Shown: positions 946-55,242, counted from the first letter of the stretch. The stretch is DNA of 64,000 nt from Candidatus Woesearchaeota archaeon CG10_big_fil_rev_8_21_14_0_10_44_13 (GCA_002762985.1 PCXZ01000034.1:8431-72430); one strand, 5' to 3'. Made by a program: numbers and translations. Notes: a model not told the origin generated them from the letters alone.

Positions 946-2919
946 ATGCCCGGAATAAGCGAAAGATTAGGTATATCAAACAACATGCTGGCTTTTCTTG
1001 TAGTGATTTTTTTATTGATATCATCATGGGGCAATTGGCATATCATAAATATGCAGGATGTGACAGGATGGACCAGCGAAGGCTCAGGGACAATAGGCGC
1101 TTGCGTCAACAAGCCTCCGACAATAAGCCATTCCTGCACATTGACGGCTTATATCAGCCAGGAGTATGAATGCGATATAGATGCTGTGAAGGACGCAGGA
1201 GAAAACCTGACCTTCTATGATTATACGAGCCTATTCGACATAAATGCCACAGACGGCATGATAAGGTTCACGCCCACGTCCTCGCAGGCAGGCTCATATC
1301 TCATCAATATCACAGTTAAGGACAACAGCTCATGCTCTAATGATGCCAATTCCACAATAATCGGGCTCACGATAATGGAGGCATACTGCGGCGACGGGAC
1401 ATGCGGGACCGGGGAAGACTGCAGCAGCTGCTCAACAGACTGCGGCTCATGCCCCACAGTGGAAAAGCCTGCTGCAGTGGCTTCCGGAGGAGGGGGGGGA
1501 TCAGGAGTGAATATGTTTGACATAGATTTTTCCAAATTAGATGAGAAGATATTCACAAGATATGCAGGAGAGAAGATAGTTTTCACGTTCAATGGGGTAA
1601 CGCCGCATAATATCTATTTAAAAAATGTAGAAGAGGGGTATATTGTCGTCTCATTAGACAAAGGGGCCGATAACACAGTGAATATCAAAGAGACAAAAAA
1701 GATAGACATCAATGGTGACGGTGTCGGGGATATAATCATATTCTATATGAGCATGGACCAGGACAAAAAAGCCCAGATAAAGGCGAGTGTCGGGGAGGGG
1801 GCAGAAGCTGTGGCAAAGGATGATGCCCTGCCGATAAAGATAGACCCTGAATCCATAAAAATCCTTCTCAGGGTCGGGACGACATTCGAGCAGAAACTAA
1901 GCATAAGGGATATAGGAAGCTATGATTTCAATGTTGCTCTCGATGTAAAAAACCTTGGGGATTTCCTGGAGCTGTCCGAGACTGAGTTTGTGGTCTACTC
2001 AATGGGAAAAAAAGAGCTGACATTGGTGTTCAAGGCGTCTCCGGGCCAGCAGCCCGGCGTCTATACAGGGAAGATATTTGTTGAAGCCGCTCCGAGCCCG
2101 GGCAAAGGCGAGAAGATATACAAGAACATCCCTGTCATAATAGAAGTTGAATCTGCTGATGTGTTCTTTGACGCGACCATAGACATCCCTTCGGATTACA
2201 GGGAGGTAATGCCTGGCCTGCAATTAAAGGCCCTTGTCACATTATTCAACCTGAAGAAGGTCAGGCCTGTCGATGTTGATGTGGATTATATCATAAAGGA
2301 CATGTATGGGAACGAGATTGCCAGGGAGAAGGACACACTGTCGATAGAGGAGCAGGTATCATTTGAAAAGACGATAAAGATCCCGGAAGGCGTTAAGGAA
2401 GGGGAATATGTCCTCATAGTCCAGACAAGATATGGGAGCTCATTCTCCACGACGAGCCAGAAGTTCTATGTCGGCAAGAGCGAGATCAGCAGGATCGAGG
2501 AGACAAAGGCTGTTGTCAAAGAGGTCCAGAGCAAGTACAACATGGCATTGTTCGCGGGTGTTGTCCTGCTGTTCGGAGCGACAGCATTCATGTTCATGCA
2601 TTACAGGAAGAGGATAGGGACGATAGAAAAAGAGAGCAAAGAGAAGATAGTCAGGAGATTGGAGGAGCTTGAGCAGAGATATAGGAAAGAGTATGAGAAG
2701 ACAGAGGAATTCATGAAGGATGAAGAGGAAAAGCTCGGCCTTGACAGGCTTGCTGATTTCATAAAGGAACATCTTGAAAAGGGATTCGATAAAGAGCGCA
2801 TAAGGGAACATTTGAAAGATCACGGCTGGAAAGACCATCACATAGACCATGCTATGCGCAAGGCATCGAAGAAAAAGCTTGAGGAAGAGATAGAGAACCT
2901 CAGGAGGATGATCAGATGA
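946..2919 (+). CDS. large type-I surface protein: signal peptide, Cys-rich CGDGTCGTGEDCSSCSTDCGSC module, Gly linker, CARDB/S-layer-like beta domains, C-terminal TM helix and a charged coiled-coil cytoplasmic tail
   Basis: 657-aa ORF. The N-terminal hydrophobic LAFLVVIFLLISSW is followed by the Cys cluster and a GGGGGSG linker. The TM helix ALFAGVVLLFGATAFMFMHY is followed by an EEL/EK-rich tail. The 3' end overlaps the next gene by 4 nt (ATGA). Confidence 0.6.
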   Translation: MPGISERLGISNNMLAFLVVIFLLISSWGNWHIINMQDVTGWTSEGSGTIGACVNKPPTISHSCTLTAYISQEYECDIDAVKDAGENLTFYDYTSLFDINATDGMIRFTPTSSQAGSYLINITVKDNSSCSNDANSTIIGLTIMEAYCGDGTCGTGEDCSSCSTDCGSCPTVEKPAAVASGGGGGSGVNMFDIDFSKLDEKIFTRYAGEKIVFTFNGVTPHNIYLKNVEEGYIVVSLDKGADNTVNIKETKKIDINGDGVGDIIIFYMSMDQDKKAQIKASVGEGAEAVAKDDALPIKIDPESIKILLRVGTTFEQKLSIRDIGSYDFNVALDVKNLGDFLELSETEFVVYSMGKKELTLVFKASPGQQPGVYTGKIFVEAAPSPGKGEKIYKNIPVIIEVESADVFFDATIDIPSDYREVMPGLQLKALVTLFNLKKVRPVDVDVDYIIKDMYGNEIAREKDTLSIEEQVSFEKTIKIPEGVKEGEYVLIVQTRYGSSFSTTSQKFYVGKSEISRIEETKAVVKEVQSKYNMALFAGVVLLFGATAFMFMHYRKRIGTIEKESKEKIVRRLEELEQRYRKEYEKTEEFMKDEEEKLGLDRLADFIKEHLEKGFDKERIREHLKDHGWKDHHIDHAMRKASKKKLEEEIENLRRMIR

Positions 2920-3494
2920 TCTTTTCGCTGCAGGAGATTTTCGACATAGCTGTGATGAGCGGGGCGATCGGGTATATGTTCAATGATTCCTTCGGCAGCA
3001 TAGCCCATAGGACAGAGGATTACGACCCTTTGACGCATTACAGGAAAAGGTTTGATTTTGACAGCCTGATGTTCGCTGTCATTGTGGCTGCTCCTGCGAT
3101 AATACTGCATGAATTGGGCCACAAGTTCGTGGCCATGAGTTTCGGCTTTACTGCGGTCTTCCATGCGGCTTACACATGGCTTTTCATAGGCGTGATATTG
3201 AAACTGCTGAACTTCGGCTTCATATTCTTCGTGCCTGCATATGTCTCTTACAGCGGCTTGACTTCCCCATTGCAGAGCTCAATGATAGCTTTTGCAGGGC
3301 CATTCGTCAATCTACTGCTGTGGATTGTGCCTTTCATCATCCTGAAGAAGGATATCAAGATGAAAAGGAAGGTGAGGGCGTTCCTCTTCCTGACAAGCAG
3401 GATAAACATGTTCCTGTTCATATTCAACATGCTGCCCATACCTATGTTCGACGGGTATCATGTCTTCCAGGGCCTGATAAGCGCATTCATGTGA
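2916..3494 (+). CDS. site-2-protease-like zinc metalloprotease, peptidase family M50
   Basis: The HExxH motif (ILHELGHKF) lies inside a TM helix. The second M50 motif NMLPIPMFDGYH (N-x-x-P-x-x-x-[LF]DG) is present. The protein is multi-pass hydrophobic and translationally coupled to the upstream surface protein. Confidence 0.7.
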   Translation: MIFSLQEIFDIAVMSGAIGYMFNDSFGSIAHRTEDYDPLTHYRKRFDFDSLMFAVIVAAPAIILHELGHKFVAMSFGFTAVFHAAYTWLFIGVILKLLNFGFIFFVPAYVSYSGLTSPLQSSMIAFAGPFVNLLLWIVPFIILKKDIKMKRKVRAFLFLTSRINMFLFIFNMLPIPMFDGYHVFQGLISAFM

Positions 3495-3518
3495 TTTAAT
3501 ATATTCTCGCCCATACAA

Positions 3519-3531
3519 ATATTTAAATAAG
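3519..3531 (+). promoter_or_regulatory. TATA-box-like element (atatttaaataag) ~25 nt upstream of the pyrG ATG
   Basis: A/T-rich TATA-like box at archaeal spacing from the start codon, implying a leaderless or short-leader mRNA. Confidence 0.35.
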
Positions 3532-3550
3532 AAATAGAGTTAGTTGGATA

Positions 3551-5167
3551 ATGCACACAAAATTCATTGTTGTAACAGGGGGGGTTCTTTCAGGCGTCGG
3601 GAAAGGCACGATAACCGCTTCTATAGGAAAATTGCTTTCGCTGCAGGGCTATAAGGTCGCTTCTATCAAGATAGACCCTTACATAAACATAGATGCAGGC
3701 ACTATGAGGCCCACTGAGCACGGCGAGGTGTTCGTGACAGAGGACGGAGGCGAGACTGACCAGGACCTTGGGATATATGAGAGGTTCATAGGGAATTACT
3801 GCCTTAAAGAGCAGAATATGACGACTGGCCAGGTCTATGAGACCGTGATCCACAAAGAGAGGAACCTTGAATATGGCGGCAGATGCGTTGAGGTCATACC
3901 CCACATACCCGAAGAGGTGAAAAGAAGGATCAAGGCAGTTGCCGAGAAAAACAATGCTGATTTCTGCCTTATTGAAGTTGGGGGGACTGTAGGGGATTAC
4001 CAGAATGTGCTTTTCCTGGAAGCGCTCAGGGAGATGAGGCTTCAGGGAGAAAAGATAGTCTTTGTGCATGTCGCTTATCTTCCTGTGCCCGGGAATCTTG
4101 GTGAGATGAAGACTAAGCCTGCGCAGAGATCCGTAAGGGACCTGAATTCAATAGGGATACAGCCAGATTTCATAGTCACAAGATCTGCGATGCCGCTTGA
4201 TGATGTAAGGAAAGAGAAGCTCTCATTGTTCTGCAATGTAGTCAAGGATGATGTGATCTCATCCCCTGATGTCAGGAACATCTATGAAGTGCCGCTTGTA
4301 TTGGAAAGCCAGGATTTCACCTCAAAGGTGCTCTCTAAATTCAACATGGTCTTCAAGACTGGGAAGATGAAGGAGTGGGAGGCATTTGTTGAAAGTACAA
4401 AAAAACTGGAAAAAGAGGCCAGGATAGGCATCATAGGGAAGTATTTTGACACTGGCGATTTCACGCTTGAGGATTCCTATATCTCTGTCATTGAGGCAGT
4501 GAAGCATGCGTGCTGGAACAACGGCTTCAGGCCCAAGATTGAATGGATAAACTCAAAGGATTATGAGAAGGACGATAAATTGCTGCAGGGATTGAAGAGT
4601 TATGATGCCATCATTGTGCCCGGCGGTTTCGGGAAATCGGGCGTTGAAGGGAAGATCAAGGCAATAAGGTTTGCCCGCGAGAACAAGATCCCTTATCTTG
4701 GATTGTGCTACGGCATGCAGCTTGCTGTGATCGAGTTCGCAAGGAATGTCTGCGGGATGAAGGATGCGAATACGACTGAGAACGACCCGAAGACAAGATT
4801 CCCTGTCATTGACATAATGCCCGAGCAGAAGAAGATAATCGCAGAATCGAAGTATGGGGCGACGATGAGGCTCGGGGCTTATAAGGCCGTGCTTAAGAAA
4901 GGGAGCATAGTGCATAAGCTTTATGGCAAGGATGAGGTTTCTGAACGTCATAGGCACAGGTATGAGGTGAATCCTGAGTTCATTTCTAAATTAGAGGCAA
5001 AAGGCCTTGTGTTCTCCGGGAAAAGCCCTGATGGGAAGCTGATGGAGTTCATTGAAATCCAAAATCATATTTTTATGGTGGGAACACAAGGGCATCCAGA
5101 GTTCAAGTCTTATCCGATGAAGCCTTCGCCATTGTTCGACGGGCTTGTGAAGGCGATCAAGAAGTAG
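3551..5167 (+). CDS. pyrG: CTP synthase
   Basis: 538 aa. The N-terminal synthetase domain has VTGGVLSGVGKG. The C-terminal class-I glutamine amidotransferase has GLCYGMQ and the HPEF His region. Confidence 0.95.
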   Translation: MHTKFIVVTGGVLSGVGKGTITASIGKLLSLQGYKVASIKIDPYINIDAGTMRPTEHGEVFVTEDGGETDQDLGIYERFIGNYCLKEQNMTTGQVYETVIHKERNLEYGGRCVEVIPHIPEEVKRRIKAVAEKNNADFCLIEVGGTVGDYQNVLFLEALREMRLQGEKIVFVHVAYLPVPGNLGEMKTKPAQRSVRDLNSIGIQPDFIVTRSAMPLDDVRKEKLSLFCNVVKDDVISSPDVRNIYEVPLVLESQDFTSKVLSKFNMVFKTGKMKEWEAFVESTKKLEKEARIGIIGKYFDTGDFTLEDSYISVIEAVKHACWNNGFRPKIEWINSKDYEKDDKLLQGLKSYDAIIVPGGFGKSGVEGKIKAIRFARENKIPYLGLCYGMQLAVIEFARNVCGMKDANTTENDPKTRFPVIDIMPEQKKIIAESKYGATMRLGAYKAVLKKGSIVHKLYGKDEVSERHRHRYEVNPEFISKLEAKGLVFSGKSPDGKLMEFIEIQNHIFMVGTQGHPEFKSYPMKPSPLFDGLVKAIKK

Positions 5168-5168
5168 A

Positions 5169-5519
5169 TTATTTCTTTTTGTAGCTGAATTTTTTGTCAT
5201 AAGTTTTATGATCGATTATATCTAGAATAAATACGATTAACTCATTTTCATCTTTTCCAGAAGTCAATGTATAAAGCATTCTCCAAAAGTCCGGAAGTTC
5301 TATCCTAAACAGGTTATTTATGTTATAGTTTAGCTTATATTCTACAGGGGTTAGGGGCTTAGAGATAGGATCCCCATAATGTATATCTATTTTCACTAAT
5401 CTTATTTTTTGATTTATAGCGTCAAGAAGCATCCGGTCTAGTTTTGTTGTTTTTGTATTTAATAGATTATAGACTAGTTCTGCTTCTGGTGAAAATATGA
5501 CCTTGACTAGTTTTTTCAT
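5169..5519 (-). CDS. RelE/ParE-family type II toxin
   Basis: The C-terminal FWRMLYTLTSGKDENELIVFILDIIDHKTYDKKF matches the RelE/ParE signature (yRiiY...viLrighRk.vY). It lies immediately downstream of a small ORF on the same strand, the canonical antitoxin-toxin order. Confidence 0.55.
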   Translation of the reverse strand: MKKLVKVIFSPEAELVYNLLNTKTTKLDRMLLDAINQKIRLVKIDIHYGDPISKPLTPVEYKLNYNINNLFRIELPDFWRMLYTLTSGKDENELIVFILDIIDHKTYDKKFSYKKK

Positions 5520-5578
5520 GCAATATGTACAGAATTTAGTTTTTATAAGCCTTGCTCAAAAAATCCGAAAATCTTCCG

Positions 5579-5848
5579 CTATAACCGTAAACCTTCCGAA
5601 ATCGCTTTCTTTAATGATGGGTTTGTGTTGTGCACCCAGGTGATCCCTTTTAGACCAAAAGTTATCTTGTTGCTTTCCTCAAGATATCCCAGGATTGCCT
5701 TCAGTGTGTTGTGGTTCACCTGCTTCGGGAGCCTTCTTTTGAGCTCTGCTATTGTTATTACGCTATCGTCCATAGTTTTGAGAGCTTTCTCTACCATGAG
5801 GATGGTGTTCAATGTGGGGTAATGCTCTAGTTTTTGTTCGTGTAACAT
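5579..5848 (-). CDS. small DNA-binding-like protein, putative antitoxin of the RelE/ParE pair
   Basis: 89 aa, directly upstream of and co-oriented with the toxin. Its start codon lies inside the repeated motif ATGTTACAC, which recurs twice at 7389-7443. Confidence 0.45.
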   Translation of the reverse strand: MLHEQKLEHYPTLNTILMVEKALKTMDDSVITIAELKRRLPKQVNHNTLKAILGYLEESNKITFGLKGITWVHNTNPSLKKAISEGLRL

Positions 5849-6100
5849 TTTAATAACAAATATTTATCAATTAATACCTAATATATATTAACTTATATAT
5901 AAATGTTTTGGTTTGGTATGAGATAATATTAAGAAAATTTATATAAGCTCCGTTTTTCCTATGCTCAATGGCTATCCCCTACTTCCCGAACGACAACTGG
6001 TGGTCTTTGCCTTTCATGGCTTCTGTAATGACGATTGTTGCCATAGTTGTGGCATTCTATATCGCCTACAAGGAGGCGAAGAGGAAGGAGTTGAACTTAG
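5836..6100. repeat. direct repeat copy A (~250 bp): ATGTTACAC motif + A/T-rich promoter + first ~45 codons of an lgt-like gene
   Basis: About 90% nucleotide identity to 7499-7630 over the coding part (MAIPYFPNDNWWSLPFMASVMTIVAIVVAFYIAYKEAKRKEL vs MPIPYFPNDNWWSLPFMASVMTFVAIVVAFYIAYKEAKRKDL). The upstream aatttatataagc / ccgtttttcct blocks are also shared. Confidence 0.7.
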
Positions 6101-6291
6101 AAGAAAATTATATGATTAACCATTTCCACAAGGGGATGAAATCGATGCCATTTTCCTTTTTTTCCGTGTCTTTTGTCAAAATGACCAGTTCATTGACCTT
6201 GCTTAATTCCTGTTTGCACTCCATGAGAGCTTTTATTTCCCTTTCATCAATCTCATCAGTATATGAAACATTCATTGCCGTCAGGCTTTGA
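5968..6291 (+). pseudogene. truncated 5' fragment of an lgt-family gene (first ~45 codons intact, then reads into the antisense of the ATPase gene)
   Basis: The N-terminus is near-identical to the intact paralog at 7499..8320. Homology ends at ~6100, where the convergent ATPase gene's 3' end begins. Confidence 0.6.
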
Positions 6292-7388
6292 TCTTCATTT
6301 TTGATCATGAAATCCACTTCGCCTTTGTTTTTCCAGTAATAGACATCTTTTTCCCTTCTTTTTAATTCAATAAAAACCAGATTCTCAGCCAGCTTCCCTT
6401 CATCCCTTGAAAATTTAAAGCTGACGGAATTCCTCAATCCGTTGTCTATGCAGTAAATCTTCGATGGCAGCGTCTTCTGTTCCTTGAATGAGTAGGCGAA
6501 ATGGTCCAGTGTGAAAAATAAGAAAGCCTCTTTAAAATAAGATAGATAATCCCTTATGGTGTCATAGGATATTTTCAGAGAGTTTCTCAGACTTCTCAGG
6601 GAGATTATGCCTGTAGAGTTTGTTGTGAGAAATAATGCGAGATCCTTTGTCTTCTGTGTATTAAGATTATATCTGTCAATTATATCTTTATACAATATAT
6701 CATCAAAATACTGCTCCAGGATCCTAATCTTATATTCTTTCACCTTAAAGAAGATTTCAGGAAAACCGCCAAGAGCCATATACTCTTTCAAATGCTTCAG
6801 GATGAGCAGTTTTGTTTTTTCCAGGACTACCCCCCTCTTCAAATTATCCTTGCTGATTGAAATTTCTTTGAATAACAGGAATTCCTCAAAACCAAGCGGA
6901 AAAACCTCAAATGTGATGTTCCTGCCTGTCAAAAGAGTGGAATATTCTTTTCTCAACAGATGGGAACATGATCCTGAAATAACGAACTTGTCGTCAGTTT
7001 TTAGGTCATATTTTTTCCTTATCCATGATTCCCATCCCTCTTTTCTATGGATCTCGTCCAGGAAGATATATGCCTTCTTGTCCGGGTTTATGTCCCCCCT
7101 GTAGCCCGAGTAGATATCATCTAACGAATCATCCACAAGCTTTTTGTCCTCGAGATTCACAAACAAAATCTGCTCCGGCGATGCTCCCTTTTCCAGCAAT
7201 TTGGCTATCATCTGGTACATCAATGTGCTCTTCCCGGACCTCCTTACGCCCGTTATCACTGTTATCTCCCTTATCCTGACAGAATCGACCAGATGGCTGT
7301 ATTTCGGCCTGTTCTTGCCCTTCAATTCGTCTGGCAGGGACTTTTTCTCCCACCACTGGTTCCATTCGCTTAATTTGCTTATTTCCAT
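6108..7388 (-). CDS. AAA+ superfamily ATPase with a C-terminal DUF4143 (COG1373-type) domain
   Basis: Walker A GVRRSGKSTLMYQ and Walker B FLDEIH. The C-terminal ...GEVDFMIKNE... region is typical of the DUF4143 restriction-endonuclease-like fold. It is the only gene between the two ~250-bp direct repeats. Confidence 0.8.
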   Translation of the reverse strand: MEISKLSEWNQWWEKKSLPDELKGKNRPKYSHLVDSVRIREITVITGVRRSGKSTLMYQMIAKLLEKGASPEQILFVNLEDKKLVDDSLDDIYSGYRGDINPDKKAYIFLDEIHRKEGWESWIRKKYDLKTDDKFVISGSCSHLLRKEYSTLLTGRNITFEVFPLGFEEFLLFKEISISKDNLKRGVVLEKTKLLILKHLKEYMALGGFPEIFFKVKEYKIRILEQYFDDILYKDIIDRYNLNTQKTKDLALFLTTNSTGIISLRSLRNSLKISYDTIRDYLSYFKEAFLFFTLDHFAYSFKEQKTLPSKIYCIDNGLRNSVSFKFSRDEGKLAENLVFIELKRREKDVYYWKNKGEVDFMIKNEDQSLTAMNVSYTDEIDEREIKALMECKQELSKVNELVILTKDTEKKENGIDFIPLWKWLII

Positions 7389-7443
7389 ATGTTACGTTTA
7401 GGTGTAACATTAACTATATAAATGTTACGTTTTTGTGTAACAT
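7389..7443. promoter_or_regulatory. two copies of the palindrome ATGTTAC-N8-GTAACAT flanking a TATA box (ctatataaa), abutting the ATPase start codon
   Basis: Half-sites lie at 7389-7395/7404-7410 and 7422-7428/7437-7443. On the minus strand each copy reads ATGTTACAC..., the same 9-mer that starts the putative antitoxin gene at 5848. Confidence 0.5.
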
Positions 7444-7630
7444 TTTAGGCATTTATGCGGCTGACAACATTTATATAAAGCCCCGATTTCTTTGTTTCAT
7501 GCCGATCCCCTACTTCCCGAACGACAACTGGTGGTCTTTGCCTTTCATGGCTTCTGTGATGACCTTTGTTGCGATAGTCGTTGCGTTCTATATTGCCTAT
7601 AAAGAGGCGAAGAGGAAGGATCTGAATGTT
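7389..7630. repeat. direct repeat copy B (partner of 5836-6100)
   Basis: See copy A. Together the two copies bracket the 1.3-kb ATPase gene. Confidence 0.7.
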
Positions 7631-8320
7631 GATATGTTCTTCATGTCTGCACTTTGGATGGGTGCTGGTGCGTTGATCGGAGGATGGCTTGCTTTCTTTT
7701 TGACGCCTGGGCCGGGGTTCCTTAATATCTACCATCCTGGGGCGCATAGTGTGGGGGTGATTGTTGGAGGGGGGTTGGGAATAGCTGCTTATTGTTTGTA
7801 TAAAAAAGAGAATATAAAAAAAAAGTGTGGGAATCTAACAATATTCTTTACGAACCTTGCTGAAATATGGGGTTTAGGTGCCATGATAGGTACTTTTTTT
7901 TATAGGATTGGAGATTTCTTGAGCCATTGCATCGAGATTGGGACTCCGACTAACTTGCCTTGGGCAGTCATTGATAATGGAATAGCAAGGCATCCGATTA
8001 ATTTGTATTATTCACTTGCAGGGATAGTGATTTTTGTTATTTTAATTGAAATAAATAAAATTAAAATATCAAAAGAGGTTAAAGGATATACTCTAACCTG
8101 GTTTTTGATGATATATCCACTTTCAAGATTGTTTGTGGATTTATATAGGGTCCAATATTCAAAATTTTTTGGTTTAAGTGTTGATCAATTGATATTCTTA
8201 TTATTGACTATCCAATCTATAATTGCAATAATGGCTATCCACATATTATACAGATTTGAAAAAAGAAGACAGTTTGTTTATCCCCCATTAGATTTGATAA
8301 GATATTTGCTTAAAAAATAG
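7499..8320 (+). CDS. prolipoprotein diacylglyceryl transferase (Lgt) family membrane protein, paralog 1 (divergent)
   Basis: Multi-TM. Contains YRIGDFLSHCIEIG...WAVIDNGIARHPINLYYSLAG, which is collinear with the Lgt signature region (G-R-x-G-x-F...HP-x-QLY) seen in the three paralogs at 19.7-24.3 kb. The start is taken at the ATG matching the duplicated copy (7499), not the upstream ORF-track start. Confidence 0.55.
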   Translation: MPIPYFPNDNWWSLPFMASVMTFVAIVVAFYIAYKEAKRKDLNVDMFFMSALWMGAGALIGGWLAFFLTPGPGFLNIYHPGAHSVGVIVGGGLGIAAYCLYKKENIKKKCGNLTIFFTNLAEIWGLGAMIGTFFYRIGDFLSHCIEIGTPTNLPWAVIDNGIARHPINLYYSLAGIVIFVILIEINKIKISKEVKGYTLTWFLMIYPLSRLFVDLYRVQYSKFFGLSVDQLIFLLLTIQSIIAIMAIHILYRFEKRRQFVYPPLDLIRYLLKK

Positions 8321-11166: not shown

Positions 11167-12105
11167 TCAGCCTGAAAAGTTCAATTTTTGTCCTAACCCC
11201 TTAGACCCAATTGATTTTAATAGATAAAAAAATGATTTGAATCTCGAATTATTATTTTCTTGACTATTTATCATCTTAAATGATGCTGATATAATTAAAT
11301 AAAAAAATAAAATAATTAACCATACAAAGTATAATAACAATAAGAATAGGAATTTAAAAGATAAATGTTTCTTTAAGAAAATGTATAGGCTATTATTAAA
11401 ATTATATATGACGAATGGGGAAAGGGAATGTTTTATTGTTCCCCCCCATTTATGCAATATCTTTACATTATCAGCCCTCTTTGTTTTAAAGCCTTTGAGC
11501 CTCGCTCTTTTCCCATAATCAAAATCGTCAAAATAAAAGAGTCTTTCATCAAAATAACCAATTTCTTTTGCTTTATTATTATCAATCATCATTGCACACC
11601 CATCAACCATAGAATTCCATTTCGCCAGTTTTAAGGAATTTATGATTTTTAATAACCAAAAGCTCTCAAAGATTTTTTTATCTTGGTTATCCAGTAAATA
11701 TGAAGTTGGAAAGACTATTGCTGTGCTTTTATCATTATTAAAATAGTTTAAAATAAGGTGTAACATATTTCTATCAGTTATTATGGTATCCACATTCAAG
11801 AAAAAGGTATAATCAAACCCTTTGTTTATTGAATATTTCAACCCGTTATTATTTGCTTTTTGTAACCCTCTATTTTTTTTATTTTTCATAACTATCAGGC
11901 CATATCCCTTTGCGTAATCTAAAGTTTTATCCGAAGAAGCATTATCAATCAATAAAACTTTATAATTATTATACTCTAATTTAAATAAAGAAGATAAACA
12001 ACTTTTTATATACTTTTCACTATCCCAGCTTACAATTACAAATAAGATTTTTGGGTCATAACTATGTTTTTTTATTTTAAATGTCATTTTAGCCATCAAT
12101 ACCAC
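11167..12105 (-). CDS. family 2 glycosyltransferase
   Basis: N-terminal GT-A fold signatures (VIVSWDSEKY, LLIDNASSD, DxD-like NVDTI) and a C-terminal TM helix. It overlaps the upstream B12-rSAM gene by 10 nt. Confidence 0.7.
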   Translation of the reverse strand: MVLMAKMTFKIKKHSYDPKILFVIVSWDSEKYIKSCLSSLFKLEYNNYKVLLIDNASSDKTLDYAKGYGLIVMKNKKNRGLQKANNNGLKYSINKGFDYTFFLNVDTIITDRNMLHLILNYFNNDKSTAIVFPTSYLLDNQDKKIFESFWLLKIINSLKLAKWNSMVDGCAMMIDNNKAKEIGYFDERLFYFDDFDYGKRARLKGFKTKRADNVKILHKWGGTIKHSLSPFVIYNFNNSLYIFLKKHLSFKFLFLLLLYFVWLIILFFYLIISASFKMINSQENNNSRFKSFFYLLKSIGSKGLGQKLNFSG

Positions 12106-52680: not shown

Positions 52681-55143
52681 TTATCCATTCTTCGCTTCTT
52701 TTATTATCTCGACATCCACATTGACATAAGAATTGGCGCATTTCATGCTGGCCTTCCCGAAGGTTATCTCCTGGGCATTCGAGGCTGCCTTCAGGTCATC
52801 CAGGACGATCTCAAGCAGTTTCCTGTCTTCGGCCTTGATATCTATTGTCAGCTTCACAGGCGTCTTCAGGGAGACCTGCTTTGCGGATTTCTCCTTCCTC
52901 ACAACGGCAAGTATATCGACCAGAAGATCTCCTGCCTTCTCTGCTTTCCCGTCAATCAGTCCGGGGTCAGGCTCAGGCCATTTGCTGACATGTATGCTTT
53001 TCACACCCTCCAGCTTTGCAAAATGAAGATGGTATATTGATTCTGTTATATAAGGCATTATCGGCGCCATCAGTTTCAGCACTCCGAGCAATGAAGTATA
53101 GAGGGTGAATTTAGCAGACTCTATGTCCTCCTTGCTGTATCTTGCAGGGTTGTATATCCTGTCCTTGATTATCTCGAGATAATTGTCGCAGAGGATCTGC
53201 CAGAAGAACTTCTCTGCCTCTGCTTTTGTCTTCGAGTATTCATACCCGTCAAAGTATTCTGTGCATTCCTTAACTATGTTGTTGAACTTCGTGAGCACCC
53301 ATAGATCAATGGGCCTTATGCTCTTCAGGTCCATCTTCCTGCATCTGTAATCAGCGATATGCATCATTGCGAATTTTGAGGCATTCCACAGCTTTGTGAT
53401 CATCTTCTTTCCCGTGACAAGGTCCTTCTCCTGATAAGGCAGGTCCTCTCCGAGCTTCGAGCCAGAGGCCCAGAATCTCAGGCAGTCTGCCCCGTACTTT
53501 GCTATGACGGCCTGCGGCTCTACTACATTGCCTTTTGATTTTGACATCTTCTTGCCGTGCGGATCAAGCGCCCAGCCCGAAATCATGACATCTTTCCATG
53601 GGTTTATATTGTTCTGCATCTGGCTCTTGACCAATGTATTGAAAAGCCAGAAAGTGATTATGTCGTGCGCCTGCGGCCTTAGGTCCATGGGGTAGAGCTT
53701 GTCATACATGTCAGGGAAAAGCGATGCTGCAATCTGGGGGGATAAGGAACTTGTCGCCCATGTGTCAAGGACGTCTGATTCAGGCTCGAATTCAGAAGAT
53801 CCGCACTTGCACTTTTTCTTTGGCTTGTCCTTGACTGGGTCAACTGGCAATTGGGACTCGTCAGGCAATATCACCTCGCCGCACTTACTGCAGTACCACA
53901 CCGGTATTGGTATCCCGAAATGCCTCTGCCTTGATATGCACCAATCCCACTGCAGGCCCTTTATCCAGTTGTCATACCTGTTCTTCATATGGTCAGGATA
54001 CCAGTTAAGCCTGTTGCCTGCTTCCATGAATTTATCCCTGAGATCAAGATATCTTATGAACCATTGGTTTGTCTGCAGTATCTCAACTGGCGTCCCGCAT
54101 CTCTCATGGACATTCACCGCATGTTTTATCGGTGTCTGGGAAAGAAGCAGTTTGTGGTTCTTAAGGTCCTCGATTATCGCTTTCCTTGCCTCTTTTATGG
54201 TCTTCTCCTCATAGCCAGGAGCCAACTCATTCATCCTGCCATCTTTTGTTATGGCTACCTTAAGGGGCAGCTTGTGCTTGTAATACCATTCCATGTCTGT
54301 CTGATCGCCGAAGGTGCAGCACATCACTGCTCCTGTGCCTTTCTCAGGATCCGCTTTCTCGTCAGGAAGTATAGGGACTTCGTGGTTGAACAGCGGAACT
54401 TTTGCCTTCTTTCCGAAAAGTTTCCTGTACCTCTTGTCATCAGGATGCGCGAATATCGCTACGCATGCAGGCAACAGCTCAGGCCTTGTAGTGGCTATGA
54501 TGAGGTCAGAGCCGTCCTCAAGCTTGAACACTATGTCATTGAAGAAGCTTTCAAATTCCCTGTCCTCCATCTCTACTTGGGCTATGGCTGTCTGGCATTC
54601 AGGGCACCATAATGTCGGCGCTTCTTTCCTGTACTCCCTGCCTGCCTTGTATATGTCGATGAATGATTTCTGGGATATCTTCCTGCAGTGATTGTCTATC
54701 GTCGTGTAATATATGCTGAAATCGGCGCTCGTCCCTATCCTCTTCCAATCGGATATGTATTTCGGTCTGACTTCAGAAAGCACTTCGAGGGTCAGGTTTA
54801 TGAACTCATCCCTGCCCATCATGGTCCCCTTGACCTTCTTCATCGACTCGACAAGCCTTATCGTCGCAAGGCCGTTGTCGTCTGTGCCGAAGGGATAGAA
54901 GACATTAAAGCCCCTCATCCTCTTGTAACGGGCTATGAAATCCTGCTGGGAATATGAGAAAGCATGACCTATATGCATCTTCCCTGAAACGGTCGGCGGA
55001 GGGGTGTCTATGCTGAAGATCTTCTTCTTCGACAGAGGATCAAACTTGTATATCTTCTCTTTCTCCCAGAATGACTCTATCTTAAGCTCTTCTTTAAGAG
55101 GATCATAGTTCTGGTTTTCCTGTTTCTGCTGAGCTTCTGCCAT
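52681..55143 (-). CDS. valS: valyl-tRNA synthetase (archaeal type)
   Basis: Class I aaRS with TPPPTVSGKMHIGHAFSYSQQDFIARYKRMRGFNVFYPFGTDDNG, a Val-type P-P-P-x-x-S-G HIGH region. It also has KMSKSKGN and a CP1 editing insertion. 820 aa. Confidence 0.7.
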   Translation of the reverse strand: MAEAQQKQENQNYDPLKEELKIESFWEKEKIYKFDPLSKKKIFSIDTPPPTVSGKMHIGHAFSYSQQDFIARYKRMRGFNVFYPFGTDDNGLATIRLVESMKKVKGTMMGRDEFINLTLEVLSEVRPKYISDWKRIGTSADFSIYYTTIDNHCRKISQKSFIDIYKAGREYRKEAPTLWCPECQTAIAQVEMEDREFESFFNDIVFKLEDGSDLIIATTRPELLPACVAIFAHPDDKRYRKLFGKKAKVPLFNHEVPILPDEKADPEKGTGAVMCCTFGDQTDMEWYYKHKLPLKVAITKDGRMNELAPGYEEKTIKEARKAIIEDLKNHKLLLSQTPIKHAVNVHERCGTPVEILQTNQWFIRYLDLRDKFMEAGNRLNWYPDHMKNRYDNWIKGLQWDWCISRQRHFGIPIPVWYCSKCGEVILPDESQLPVDPVKDKPKKKCKCGSSEFEPESDVLDTWATSSLSPQIAASLFPDMYDKLYPMDLRPQAHDIITFWLFNTLVKSQMQNNINPWKDVMISGWALDPHGKKMSKSKGNVVEPQAVIAKYGADCLRFWASGSKLGEDLPYQEKDLVTGKKMITKLWNASKFAMMHIADYRCRKMDLKSIRPIDLWVLTKFNNIVKECTEYFDGYEYSKTKAEAEKFFWQILCDNYLEIIKDRIYNPARYSKEDIESAKFTLYTSLLGVLKLMAPIMPYITESIYHLHFAKLEGVKSIHVSKWPEPDPGLIDGKAEKAGDLLVDILAVVRKEKSAKQVSLKTPVKLTIDIKAEDRKLLEIVLDDLKAASNAQEITFGKASMKCANSYVNVDVEIIKEAKNG

Positions 55144-55242
55144 ATTATGTTACACCTGCAATAGGTTATATCCGGAGATATTATATCCCGTCAAGATTGC
55201 GTCCTATATCATAAGGCAAACACCGTATATCACGCTATCGTA

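Follow-up and report, generated by a model that had tools for sequence, protein, structure and literature searches.

The promoter of an ATPase gene in the genome of Candidatus Woesearchaeota archaeon CG10_big_fil_rev_8_21_14_0_10_44_13 is straddled by two perfect palindromes, which probably represent the cis-regulatory part of a self-contained ATPase cassette: judged from sequence comparisons, the encoded ATPase would bind both palindromes and repress its own leaderless promoter. The analyzed stretch comprises 64,000 nucleotides (GCA_002762985.1, PCXZ01000034.1:8431-72430; hereafter, the window), and positions are counted from its first letter. An original prediction had connected the palindromes with a nearby toxin-antitoxin (TA)-like gene pair, here designated p89 and p116. 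The promoter is composed of two inverted repeats (IR1 and IR2) and a TATA box, as follows.

7422..7443, minus strand: IR2, putative distal operator dyad, ATGTTACACAAAAACGTAACAT (pattern search and ortholog consensus)
7415..7422, minus strand: archaeal TATA box of the ATPase promoter, TTTATATA
7389..7410, minus strand: IR1, putative proximal operator dyad between TATA box and ATG, ATGTTACACCTAAACGTAACAT, covering the predicted transcription start
6108..7388, minus strand: AAA_14 and DUF4143 ATPase of 426 amino acids (Pfam AAA_14, 6.6e-35; DUF4143, 1.2e-20)

On the minus strand, positions 7443-7386 read ATGTTACACAAAAACGTAACAT-TTATATAGTTA-ATGTTACACCTAAACGTAACAT-ATG, i.e., 5' to 3' IR2, TTATATA GTTA, IR1, and then ATG GAA, with the ATPase start codon at 7388 directly after IR1. 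The palindromes at 7389-7410 and 7422-7443 thus flank the TATA box in front of the ATPase exactly as originally described. Both are perfect 7-N8-7 dyads (ATGTTAC-N8-GTAACAT) with a spacing of 33 nt, and the promoter-proximal half of IR2, CGTAACAT, borders on the TATA box at the site of the transcription factor B recognition element (BRE). A search of the complete 64 kb with the 22-nt pattern and up to two mismatches gave no site beyond these two, the shorter core GTTAC-N8-GTAAC with at most one mismatch gave one further, unrelated site, and a hidden Markov model (HMM) built from 31 orthologous promoters had its sole significant window copy at 7389-7443 (E = 1.6e-14).

Relatives of the ATPase are encoded at 46 loci from genome and metagenome collections and at 3 loci from short contigs. 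The promoter comparison was based on the 39 loci with a readable upstream region, which provide 31 unique promoter sequences at an ATPase identity of 64-79%. The succession of dyad, TATA box, dyad, and ATG is invariant and in fixed register in 39/39 orthologous loci, and the consensus of the unique promoters reads atGTTACa.tAAAACGTAACAT-TTATATA-cta.a-TGTTACa.t.tA.tGTAAC-ATG. In IR2 (consensus atGTTACa.tAAAACGTAACAT), the proximal half is invariant, and the start codon overlaps the dyad of IR1 (aTGTTACa.t.tA.tGTAACATg) in about two-thirds of the orthologues (GTAACATG). The GTAACATTTATA anchor and the ATG are 38-41 nt apart in 38/39 loci and 57 nt apart in L028, and all orthologues have the TATA centre about 29-31 nt ahead of the ATG, which argues for a leaderless or near-leaderless ATPase mRNA. 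The initial description of the palindromes as operator-like has therefore gained in substance, since they lie on both sides of the TATA box, extend over the expected transcription start, and are conserved in sequence and location at all orthologous ATPase loci examined.

Homology between the orthologues vanishes immediately upstream of IR2 and right after the stop codon. The flanking genes vary from one orthologous locus to another, and neither lgt, p89, p116, and pyrG nor any other neighbour from the window was found in the flanks of 48 ATPase loci. Substitutions within the dyads are one-sided, e.g., GCTAC (six times), GATAC, GGTAC, ATTAC, and GCTCC in the distal half-sites and GTAGC and GTAAT in the proximal ones, and the partner half never compensates (about 12 substitutions in the 31 unique promoters), so that the dyads behave as protein-binding sites and not as hairpins. 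Copies of the ATPase with 70-76% identity to that of the window are present in bins labelled Methanosarcinales (L005 and L014) or Heimdallarchaeaceae (P0255), and the GTTAC dyads are the same in L005 and L014, the distant-bin copies whose upstream region is covered. These occurrences reflect either cross-phylum transfer or binning errors.

The type of dyad varies with the subfamily of the ATPase. All copies with at least 64% identity are preceded by GTTAC-N8-GTAAC dyads, but TGAAC-N8-GTTCA occurs twice, 32 nt apart, in front of ATPases with 47-53% identity (L016, L041, and L047), and GTTC-N8-GAAC twice, likewise 32 nt apart, in front of a paralogue with 23% identity in L029. Dyads of the GAAAC type adjoin the TATA box of a paralogue in L009 and of the gene for the L046 protein. 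Two dyad types are thus found on the contigs L009 and L029, each before its own ATPase, which argues against one shared trans-acting regulator. The cassette encodes no protein other than the ATPase, and a helix-turn-helix (HTH)-like pattern in the latter, ISLRSLRNSLKISYDTIRDYLSYFKEAFLFF, is near-invariant among the orthologues of the GTTAC type and different in the subfamilies with other dyads. A putative winged-helix segment of the protein is located at about residues 245-300. A weak, sub-threshold match to the winged helix MCM_WH_arc was obtained for 21/36 members and is the only recurrent Pfam match outside the P-loop domain. Since the dyad type follows the subfamily and the protein contains an HTH-like stretch, we regard binding of the ATPase to its own promoter as the most likely case.

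The AAA_14-DUF4143 subfamilies are also found adjacent or in tandem on a single contig, each with its own dyad type. Such clusters are located in L009 (with the flanking repeats at 2148-2356/3610-3818), in L029 (paralogue at 1015-2457, reverse strand), and in L005 (7156-8418). In L020, cassettes are present at 531-1808 and 1867-3150, and the second begins 7 nt past the stop codon of the first.

According to the scheme that we favour, the ATPase would contact both dyads via the winged-helix segment, probably as one dimer per dyad. The spacing of 33 bp corresponds to about three helical turns and would place the two dyads roughly on the same face of the DNA. IR2 would overlap the BRE beside the TATA box and IR1 would fill the interval between TATA box and transcription start of the leaderless mRNA, so that their occupancy should block the assembly of TBP, TFB, and RNA polymerase. 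Self-repression of this kind would hold the ATPase product low and steady, also just after the arrival of the cassette in a new host. Promoter-occluding repressors with palindromic operators are established in Archaea, e.g., LrpA, MDR1, and Phr of Pyrococcus and Archaeoglobus, and NrpR acts on paired operators. The dyads described here resemble these operators in their fixed register over the BRE/TATA region and the space between TATA box and predicted start, in their paired and helically phased arrangement, and in the putative autoregulation, which is common in this group. In contrast, the presumed binder is not a small regulator but a 426-aa AAA+ ATPase with a PD-(D/E)XK-like domain, whose binding is predicted from sequence, and the operator travels with its gene as a mobile cassette. 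The operator is accordingly a new example of a familiar archaeal design, and of particular interest are its link to a very common, uncharacterized defence candidate and the repeat-bracketed structure of the cassette.

A bacterial counterpart is provided by the controller (C) proteins of restriction-modification systems, small, separate HTH proteins that act on sigma-70 promoters. Two adjacent palindromic operators at the promoter of a mobile, potentially toxic defence gene and an autoregulation after transfer, putative in the case of the ATPase, are common to both, but the archaeal cassette lacks a separate regulator gene and its promoter is of the BRE/TATA type.

Several observations weigh against self-repression by the ATPase. 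The structural model of the protein has a low confidence exactly at the putative winged helix (predicted local distance difference test [pLDDT] score of <50 at residues 259-330), and all its winged-helix Pfam matches are below threshold. The first ATPase of L020 has only 45% identity and a different putative recognition helix, yet it has kept GTTAC dyads, and the covariation of dyad and ATPase is therefore not one-to-one. Upstream sites of the dyad type are also present at four plasmid-borne homologues, a comparison made without a control set and hence only a hint. The invariance of CGTAACAT-TTTATATA may partly reflect a strong BRE/TATA element, as the word AACATTTATATA also occurs at the p89 and lgt promoters. 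Moreover, p89 is a conserved winged-helix protein that each of these genomes may encode in trans, and the nonamer ATGTTACAC, which is contained in the dyads, has three copies outside them in the window, compared to about 0.15 expected from Markov models of order 3-5.

The strongest competitor is a host transcription factor that is encoded elsewhere, is neither the ATPase nor p89, and binds the dyads, for instance to couple the cassette to infection or stress. Such a factor would suit the geometry of dyads and TATA box, which is typical of archaeal repressor operators generally, as well as the persistence of GTTAC dyads in the first L020 cassette, and the DNA-binding domain of the ATPase is itself a prediction. 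However, the cassette keeps its dyads across unrelated genomic contexts, the differing dyads on one contig would demand several dedicated factors, and a factor specific for Woesearchaeota should be absent from the Methanosarcinales and Heimdallarchaeaceae, in whose bins a copy occurs, unless these are binning errors. We therefore regard a host factor as possible but unlikely.

The AAA_14 P-loop domain of the ATPase precedes DUF4143, and residues 23-425 are matched by the PADLOC model of the candidate defence family PDC-S01 (PDLC04787; 2.6e-106), so that the protein agrees with this family in both Pfam domains and in the family HMM. PDC-S01 has been described as a very common candidate defence family, one of the most frequent in prokaryotes, that is enriched in Archaea and experimentally unvalidated (PMC12988326), and DUF4143 has been placed in the PD-(D/E)XK superfamily (PMC3424549). 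A literature search retrieved nothing on a promoter, autoregulation, or flanking repeats of PDC-S01. The subfamily of the window differs from the family in that the canonical (D/E)xK nuclease motif is missing: E335 and D359 are in place, whereas N373-V-S is found as motif III instead of E-x-K, a deviation that is invariant in 36 orthologues. This N-V-S motif was located by ortholog alignment (codons 371-375) as follows.

6268-6276, minus strand: ATPase motif III

IQV or VQS is found at this position in other subfamilies, and IEVK is kept only by the L029 paralogue. The nuclease domain may thus be catalytically dead in much of this ATPase clade. A fold search with the ATPase model gave generic AAA+ matches only (DnaA, RFC, and ORC), because the middle domain is poorly modelled, and matches of the ATPase profile to designed pentatricopeptide repeat proteins in the PDB were rejected as spurious. 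No relative of the ATPase was found in the viral contigs searched. An antisense open reading frame (ORF) inside the ATPase gene (6607-7104, plus strand) recurs in the orthologues (MSLY.ISSKYCSR...). In all likelihood, it does not represent a gene but results from the conservation of the sense frame.

The boundaries of the cassette are marked by a partial duplication of the neighbouring gene, lgt, which forms a left and a right direct repeat (DR-L and DR-R).

6097..7465, minus strand: cassette, unique segment of 1369 nt, consisting of 22 nt, IR2, TATA box, IR1, ATPase ORF, and 11 nt past the stop codon
5934..6096, plus strand: DR-L, truncated duplicate of the lgt 5' region (promoter and 43 codons); the ORF of this fragment (5968-6291) continues into the antisense strand of the ATPase
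7466..7627, plus strand: DR-R, lgt promoter (TATA box at 7466-7477) with codons 1-43, leading directly into the intact gene
7499..8320, plus strand: intact gene for an LGT-family membrane protein (Pfam LGT, 2e-21), divergent from the ATPase

DR-L and DR-R are about 86% identical and have an exact core of 53 nt (5974-6026 = 7505-7557). Their codon differences comprise 11 synonymous and 3 non-synonymous ones, compared to about 38% synonymous changes expected for a decaying fragment (binomial p = 0.002). Based on this excess, both lgt copies seem to have been functional genes while they diverged, as would be the case if one of them came from a related genome.

With a 400-nt flank criterion, bracketing direct repeats were present at 8/24 cassettes, the window included, but at 0/53 control ORFs, which were taken from these loci with a minimum length of 250 aa (Fisher p = 3.5e-5); the only three repeat-flanked ORFs in the control set proved to be AAA_14-DUF4143 genes themselves. 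The repeat period is 1.45-1.6 kb, and lengths and sequences of the repeats differ among loci, even between closely related cassettes, which is not the signature of a target-site duplication of the transposase type. Their positions are given below; the L059 repeat is outside the tally.

L015, 3869-3922/5318-5371: 54 nt, 3' half of tRNA-Leu; the intact tRNA gene lies 19 nt past the stop codon
L018, 755-784/2200-2229: 30 nt, exact
L028, 2843-2872/4343-4372: 30 nt
L031, 2166-2215/3756-3805: 50 nt
L059, 2-33/1472-1503: at least 32 nt, from a GTPase gene (codons 4-14); the two differences between the copies are synonymous
L007: 47 nt, enclosing the ATPase and an extra LAGLIDADG and HTH gene
L009 paralogue, 2148-2356/3610-3818: 209 nt, including the last 25 codons of the paralogue itself
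L029 paralogue: 214 nt

An intact copy of the target gene is kept at the bracketed cassettes, and most of the changes that distinguish the copies are synonymous. The extra gene in L007 (2738-3889) encodes a 383-aa protein with LAGLIDADG_3 and HTH_23 domains, and the 47-nt repeat equals its own 5' end. In L015, tRNA-Leu(CAG) is followed by a second tRNA-Leu-like gene (5451-5596) with an internal insertion, probably an intron, which was not called by ARAGORN; all three tRNA-related copies of this locus have the same 3' 37-44 nt. Apparent direct repeats in L013 and L033 were left out of the count, as they represent C-terminal motifs in a family of paralogous neighbouring genes, and a 54-nt repeat in L020 was recognized as the promoter of the second tandem cassette and not as a target duplication.

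The flanking repeats point to a mobile single-gene cassette, and their properties would be compatible with homologous recombination of a circular copy into the target. Integrative elements with attL and attR sites and Campbell-type plasmid integration offer a parallel, since here too the insert is bracketed by repeats of a gene end (the 5' end of lgt or the 3' half of tRNA-Leu in L015), an intact target copy is kept, and the repeat copies have diverged as if they came from related genomes. Differences are the variable targets and repeat lengths (30-214 nt), the L009 repeat that includes the 3' end of the cassette itself, and the lack of an integrase: neither a recombinase or integrase gene within or beside the archaeal cassettes nor a defined att site or a duplication of fixed length was found. 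At the plasmid loci L063 (2735-3871) and L064 (289-855 and 4009-4128), bacterial homologues with about 32-38% identity adjoin a site-specific integrase gene (Sulfuricurvum) or lie between recombinase genes (Moraxella), and 169/217 plasmid matches originate from Acinetobacter.

An empty site was not detected: L056 and L057 are identical to the window, a look-up of p89 gave the filled arrangement only, and an exact look-up of the lgt protein returned no record. Many ATPase homologues are found on contigs of 1.45-1.75 kb that hold just the cassette, a size that fits assembly breaks at repeated flanks or multi-copy elements. The 1538-nt Logan contig L001, which contains exactly the ATPase, was considered as a circular element and rejected; it equals window positions 5997-7534, and a 7-nt overlap of its ends is to be expected from a k=31 graph at the 53-nt exact repeat. 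Terminal overlaps beyond such de Bruijn repeat breaks were absent from the short contigs L001 and L059-L061, and no circle was found.

A more far-reaching and rather doubtful proposal is that the PDC-S01 genes constitute previously unrecognized minimal mobile elements of about 1.4 kb, with one gene and their own dyad-TATA-dyad control, which spread as a circle and whose dyads, bound by the ATPase, both limit its expression and serve in addition as a site of excision, replication, or insertion. The circle would carry a short flank from the donor and recombine with the homologous sequence of the host, and this recombination would yield partial duplications of the form A-cassette-A that leave the target gene intact.

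It is less probable still that the dyads are mainly sites of DNA transactions, i.e., a recombination core or an origin-like site for the AAA+ protein, and that any effect on transcription is secondary. The 7-8-7 architecture resembles the sites of tyrosine recombinases, partial duplications flank the window cassette and seven others of the 24, cassettes occur in tandem or adjoin each other (L020, L009, and L029), and the best fold matches of the AAA+ core, although generic, are DnaA, ORC, and RFC. Nevertheless, both dyads are located at one end of the cassette and the repeat junctions fall outside them, neither a circular contig nor a recombinase gene beside the archaeal cassettes was found, and the fixed register with TATA box and ATG in all orthologues suits an operator within a promoter.

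The gene pair to which the palindromes had originally been connected is located on the other side of DR-L.

5579..5848, minus strand: p89, 89-aa winged-helix protein, putative antitoxin or regulator, upstream gene of a conserved two-gene module
5169..5519, minus strand: p116, 116-aa candidate toxin, putative distant member of the RelE/ParE superfamily, downstream partner of p89
5840..5848, minus strand: ATGTTACAC (Met-Leu-His), start of p89, lone half-site look-alike outside the operator system
5849..5907, minus strand: promoter of p89 and conserved leader of about 45 nt, with AACATTTATATA at 5896-5907

The p89 protein has no sequence match in Pfam, NCBIfam, PDB, or PADLOC, but its more than 2,300 homologues, the best 120 of which are 69-86% identical, stem from Woesearchaeota and Nanoarchaeota, and its AlphaFold2 model (H-H-H-strand-strand; pLDDT, 75) gave weak matches to winged helix-turn-helix folds. 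Matches to the same four resources are likewise missing for p116 itself. Among 25 members of its family (112 homologues), weak matches were obtained to ParE_toxin (12; best, 1.7e-4), ParE_like (7), and YoeB (2), and one homologue has been named Txe/YoeB by the Joint Genome Institute; matches of the family profile to designed repeat proteins, the only ones in the PDB, were discarded as spurious. In L048, where the two genes overlap by 4 nt, as well as in L049 and L051-L053, p116 follows p89, and the pair is absent in L050. A second, divergent pair (38% and 33% identical; 5795-6420) is located in L051 about 1.1 kb downstream of the first one (4001-4673), on whose other side an AbiEii gene and its upstream partner are found (2377-3850). 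Paralogues of the module exist, and its surroundings consist of defence-type genes.

A TA-like module is a fair reading of these data, with p89 and p116 as candidate antitoxin and toxin. The designation of p89 as a RelE antitoxin was accordingly a reasonable assumption, but it lacks the backing of a Pfam, NCBIfam, or PDB match. The gene order, a small gene with a DNA-binding fold before a RelE/ParE-like gene, the overlap in orthologues, and the paralogous pairs in one locus agree with type II TA systems such as RelBE, ParDE, and YefM-YoeB. Unlike in those systems, p89 is unusually well conserved for an antitoxin, and the ATGTTAC dyads are neither located at the TA promoter nor conserved with the pair.

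It is correct that ATGTTACAC forms the start region of the 89-aa gene, and the nonamer is over-represented in the window (5 copies versus 0.19 expected from shuffles). The copies outside the dyads are the following.

5840-5848, minus strand: start of p89
11758-11766, minus strand: in frame (Met-Leu-His) within a 312-aa ORF, no dyad partner
55147-55155, plus strand: 3 nt upstream of a class I aminoacyl-tRNA synthetase gene (52681-55143, minus strand), no dyad partner

The copy at p89 also lacks a dyad partner, as the expected partner positions match in 2/7 bases, and the promoter HMM scored the sites at 5842, 11752, and 55145 with E values of >5 throughout (E = 30 at the p89 start). An 11-mer, AGGTGTAACAT, is common to IR1 and the context of the extra copies (11758-11766 and 55147-55155).

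Orthologues of p89 begin with ATGTCA(GAA/AAA)... (MSETIQEQ..., MSKQIL...; MSETIQEQKLEH and similar) and lack the nonamer. The p89 of the window begins with MLHEQKLEH and is three residues shorter, and Leu-His is within the variation of the family, whose N termini are variable (...SLHKD in P0095 and ...VIHKD in P0035); the nonamer therefore goes back to a loss of 9 nt that put the start codon beside ordinary Leu-His codons. The orthologous leader reads TTTATATATAAGTTArTATATATTAGtTATTAA..ATAAATA..GATTAAA-ATG, and window positions 5849-5907 align with the upstream regions of p89 in L048, L050, and L051 base for base, which identifies them as p89's own promoter. A MAFFT alignment and the repeats D2/D9 had suggested that the left repeat reaches 5840 and includes a decayed IR2 and the left half of IR1, with the p89 start as a relic of the cassette, but 5849-5907 is native to p89 orthologues without a cassette. 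The residual likeness of the upstream regions of p89 and the ATPase is explained by AACATTTATATA, a generic local BRE/TATA word that is common to the p89, ATPase, and both lgt promoters. The p89 leader (5849-5895 in the window; 3940-4000 in L048) contains an AT-rich dyad, ATTAGTTATTAACTAAT, which is perfect in L048 and imperfect in the window and may be a better candidate for a p89 operator than the nonamer. On a 752-nt contig with 1.2x coverage (L058, 1-192), an identical p89 diverges 19 nt upstream of its ATG and lacks the p89 promoter, and an unrelated divergent gene on this contig also begins with ATGTTACAT (Met-Leu-His); L058 is either a chimeric assembly or another arrangement.

These findings make it highly improbable that, as had been proposed, ATGTTAC-type sites at the p89 start and in front of the ATPase are both bound by the 89-aa antitoxin, which would thus cross-regulate the two. 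The winged-helix fold of p89, its position before a RelE/ParE-like gene, the abundance of the nonamer, and the 16-mer TAAAATGTTACACGAA at the p89 start, which matches IR2 plus flank at 15/16 positions, could be taken to indicate such a connection. However, TAAAATGT and GAA of the 16-mer are ancestral and also present in orthologues starting with ATGTCA, the site is a half-site without partner, and the dyad type tracks the ATPase subfamily. Conservation of the motif in orthologous loci had been set as a check, and its outcome was divided, since all ATPase loci keep the dyads and the p89 loci L048-L053 lack the nonamer; an operator common to the TA-like pair and the ATPase is thus not borne out. 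The same applies to a capture of the ATPase together with the TA promoter, as 39 loci carry the dyad pair without p89 within 3-4 kb and without any p89 or p116 homologue in their flanks. Based on the orthologous sequences, the match at the p89 start is a coincidence of the coding sequence and not a shared operator.

The interpretation of the palindromes as RNA or DNA hairpins (attenuator, terminator, or cruciform) can practically be dismissed: a stem of 7-9 bp is possible for each dyad and the folding energy of the 71-nt region is -14.4 kcal/mol (z = -3.1 versus shuffles), but the one-sided half-site substitutions are uncompensated, transcription is predicted to begin only downstream of the dyads, the stems lack a subsequent T-tract, and there is no Rfam match.

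With respect to annotation, the case of p89 illustrates that a nonamer overlapping a start codon is a poor ground for linking neighbouring genes. To our knowledge, almost no transcription factor sites have been described for DPANN archaea, including the Woesearchaeota, and the current finding offers a way to predict pairs of regulators and operators in this group. For the common and uncharacterized PDC-S01 family, the conserved, subfamily-specific operator pair suggests that the protein reads specific DNA via a winged helix. The homeologous repeats in the flanks suggest how single-gene cassettes move without disrupting their target genes, and if the ATPase takes part in this movement, the label of a defence candidate may be misleading for part of PDC-S01.

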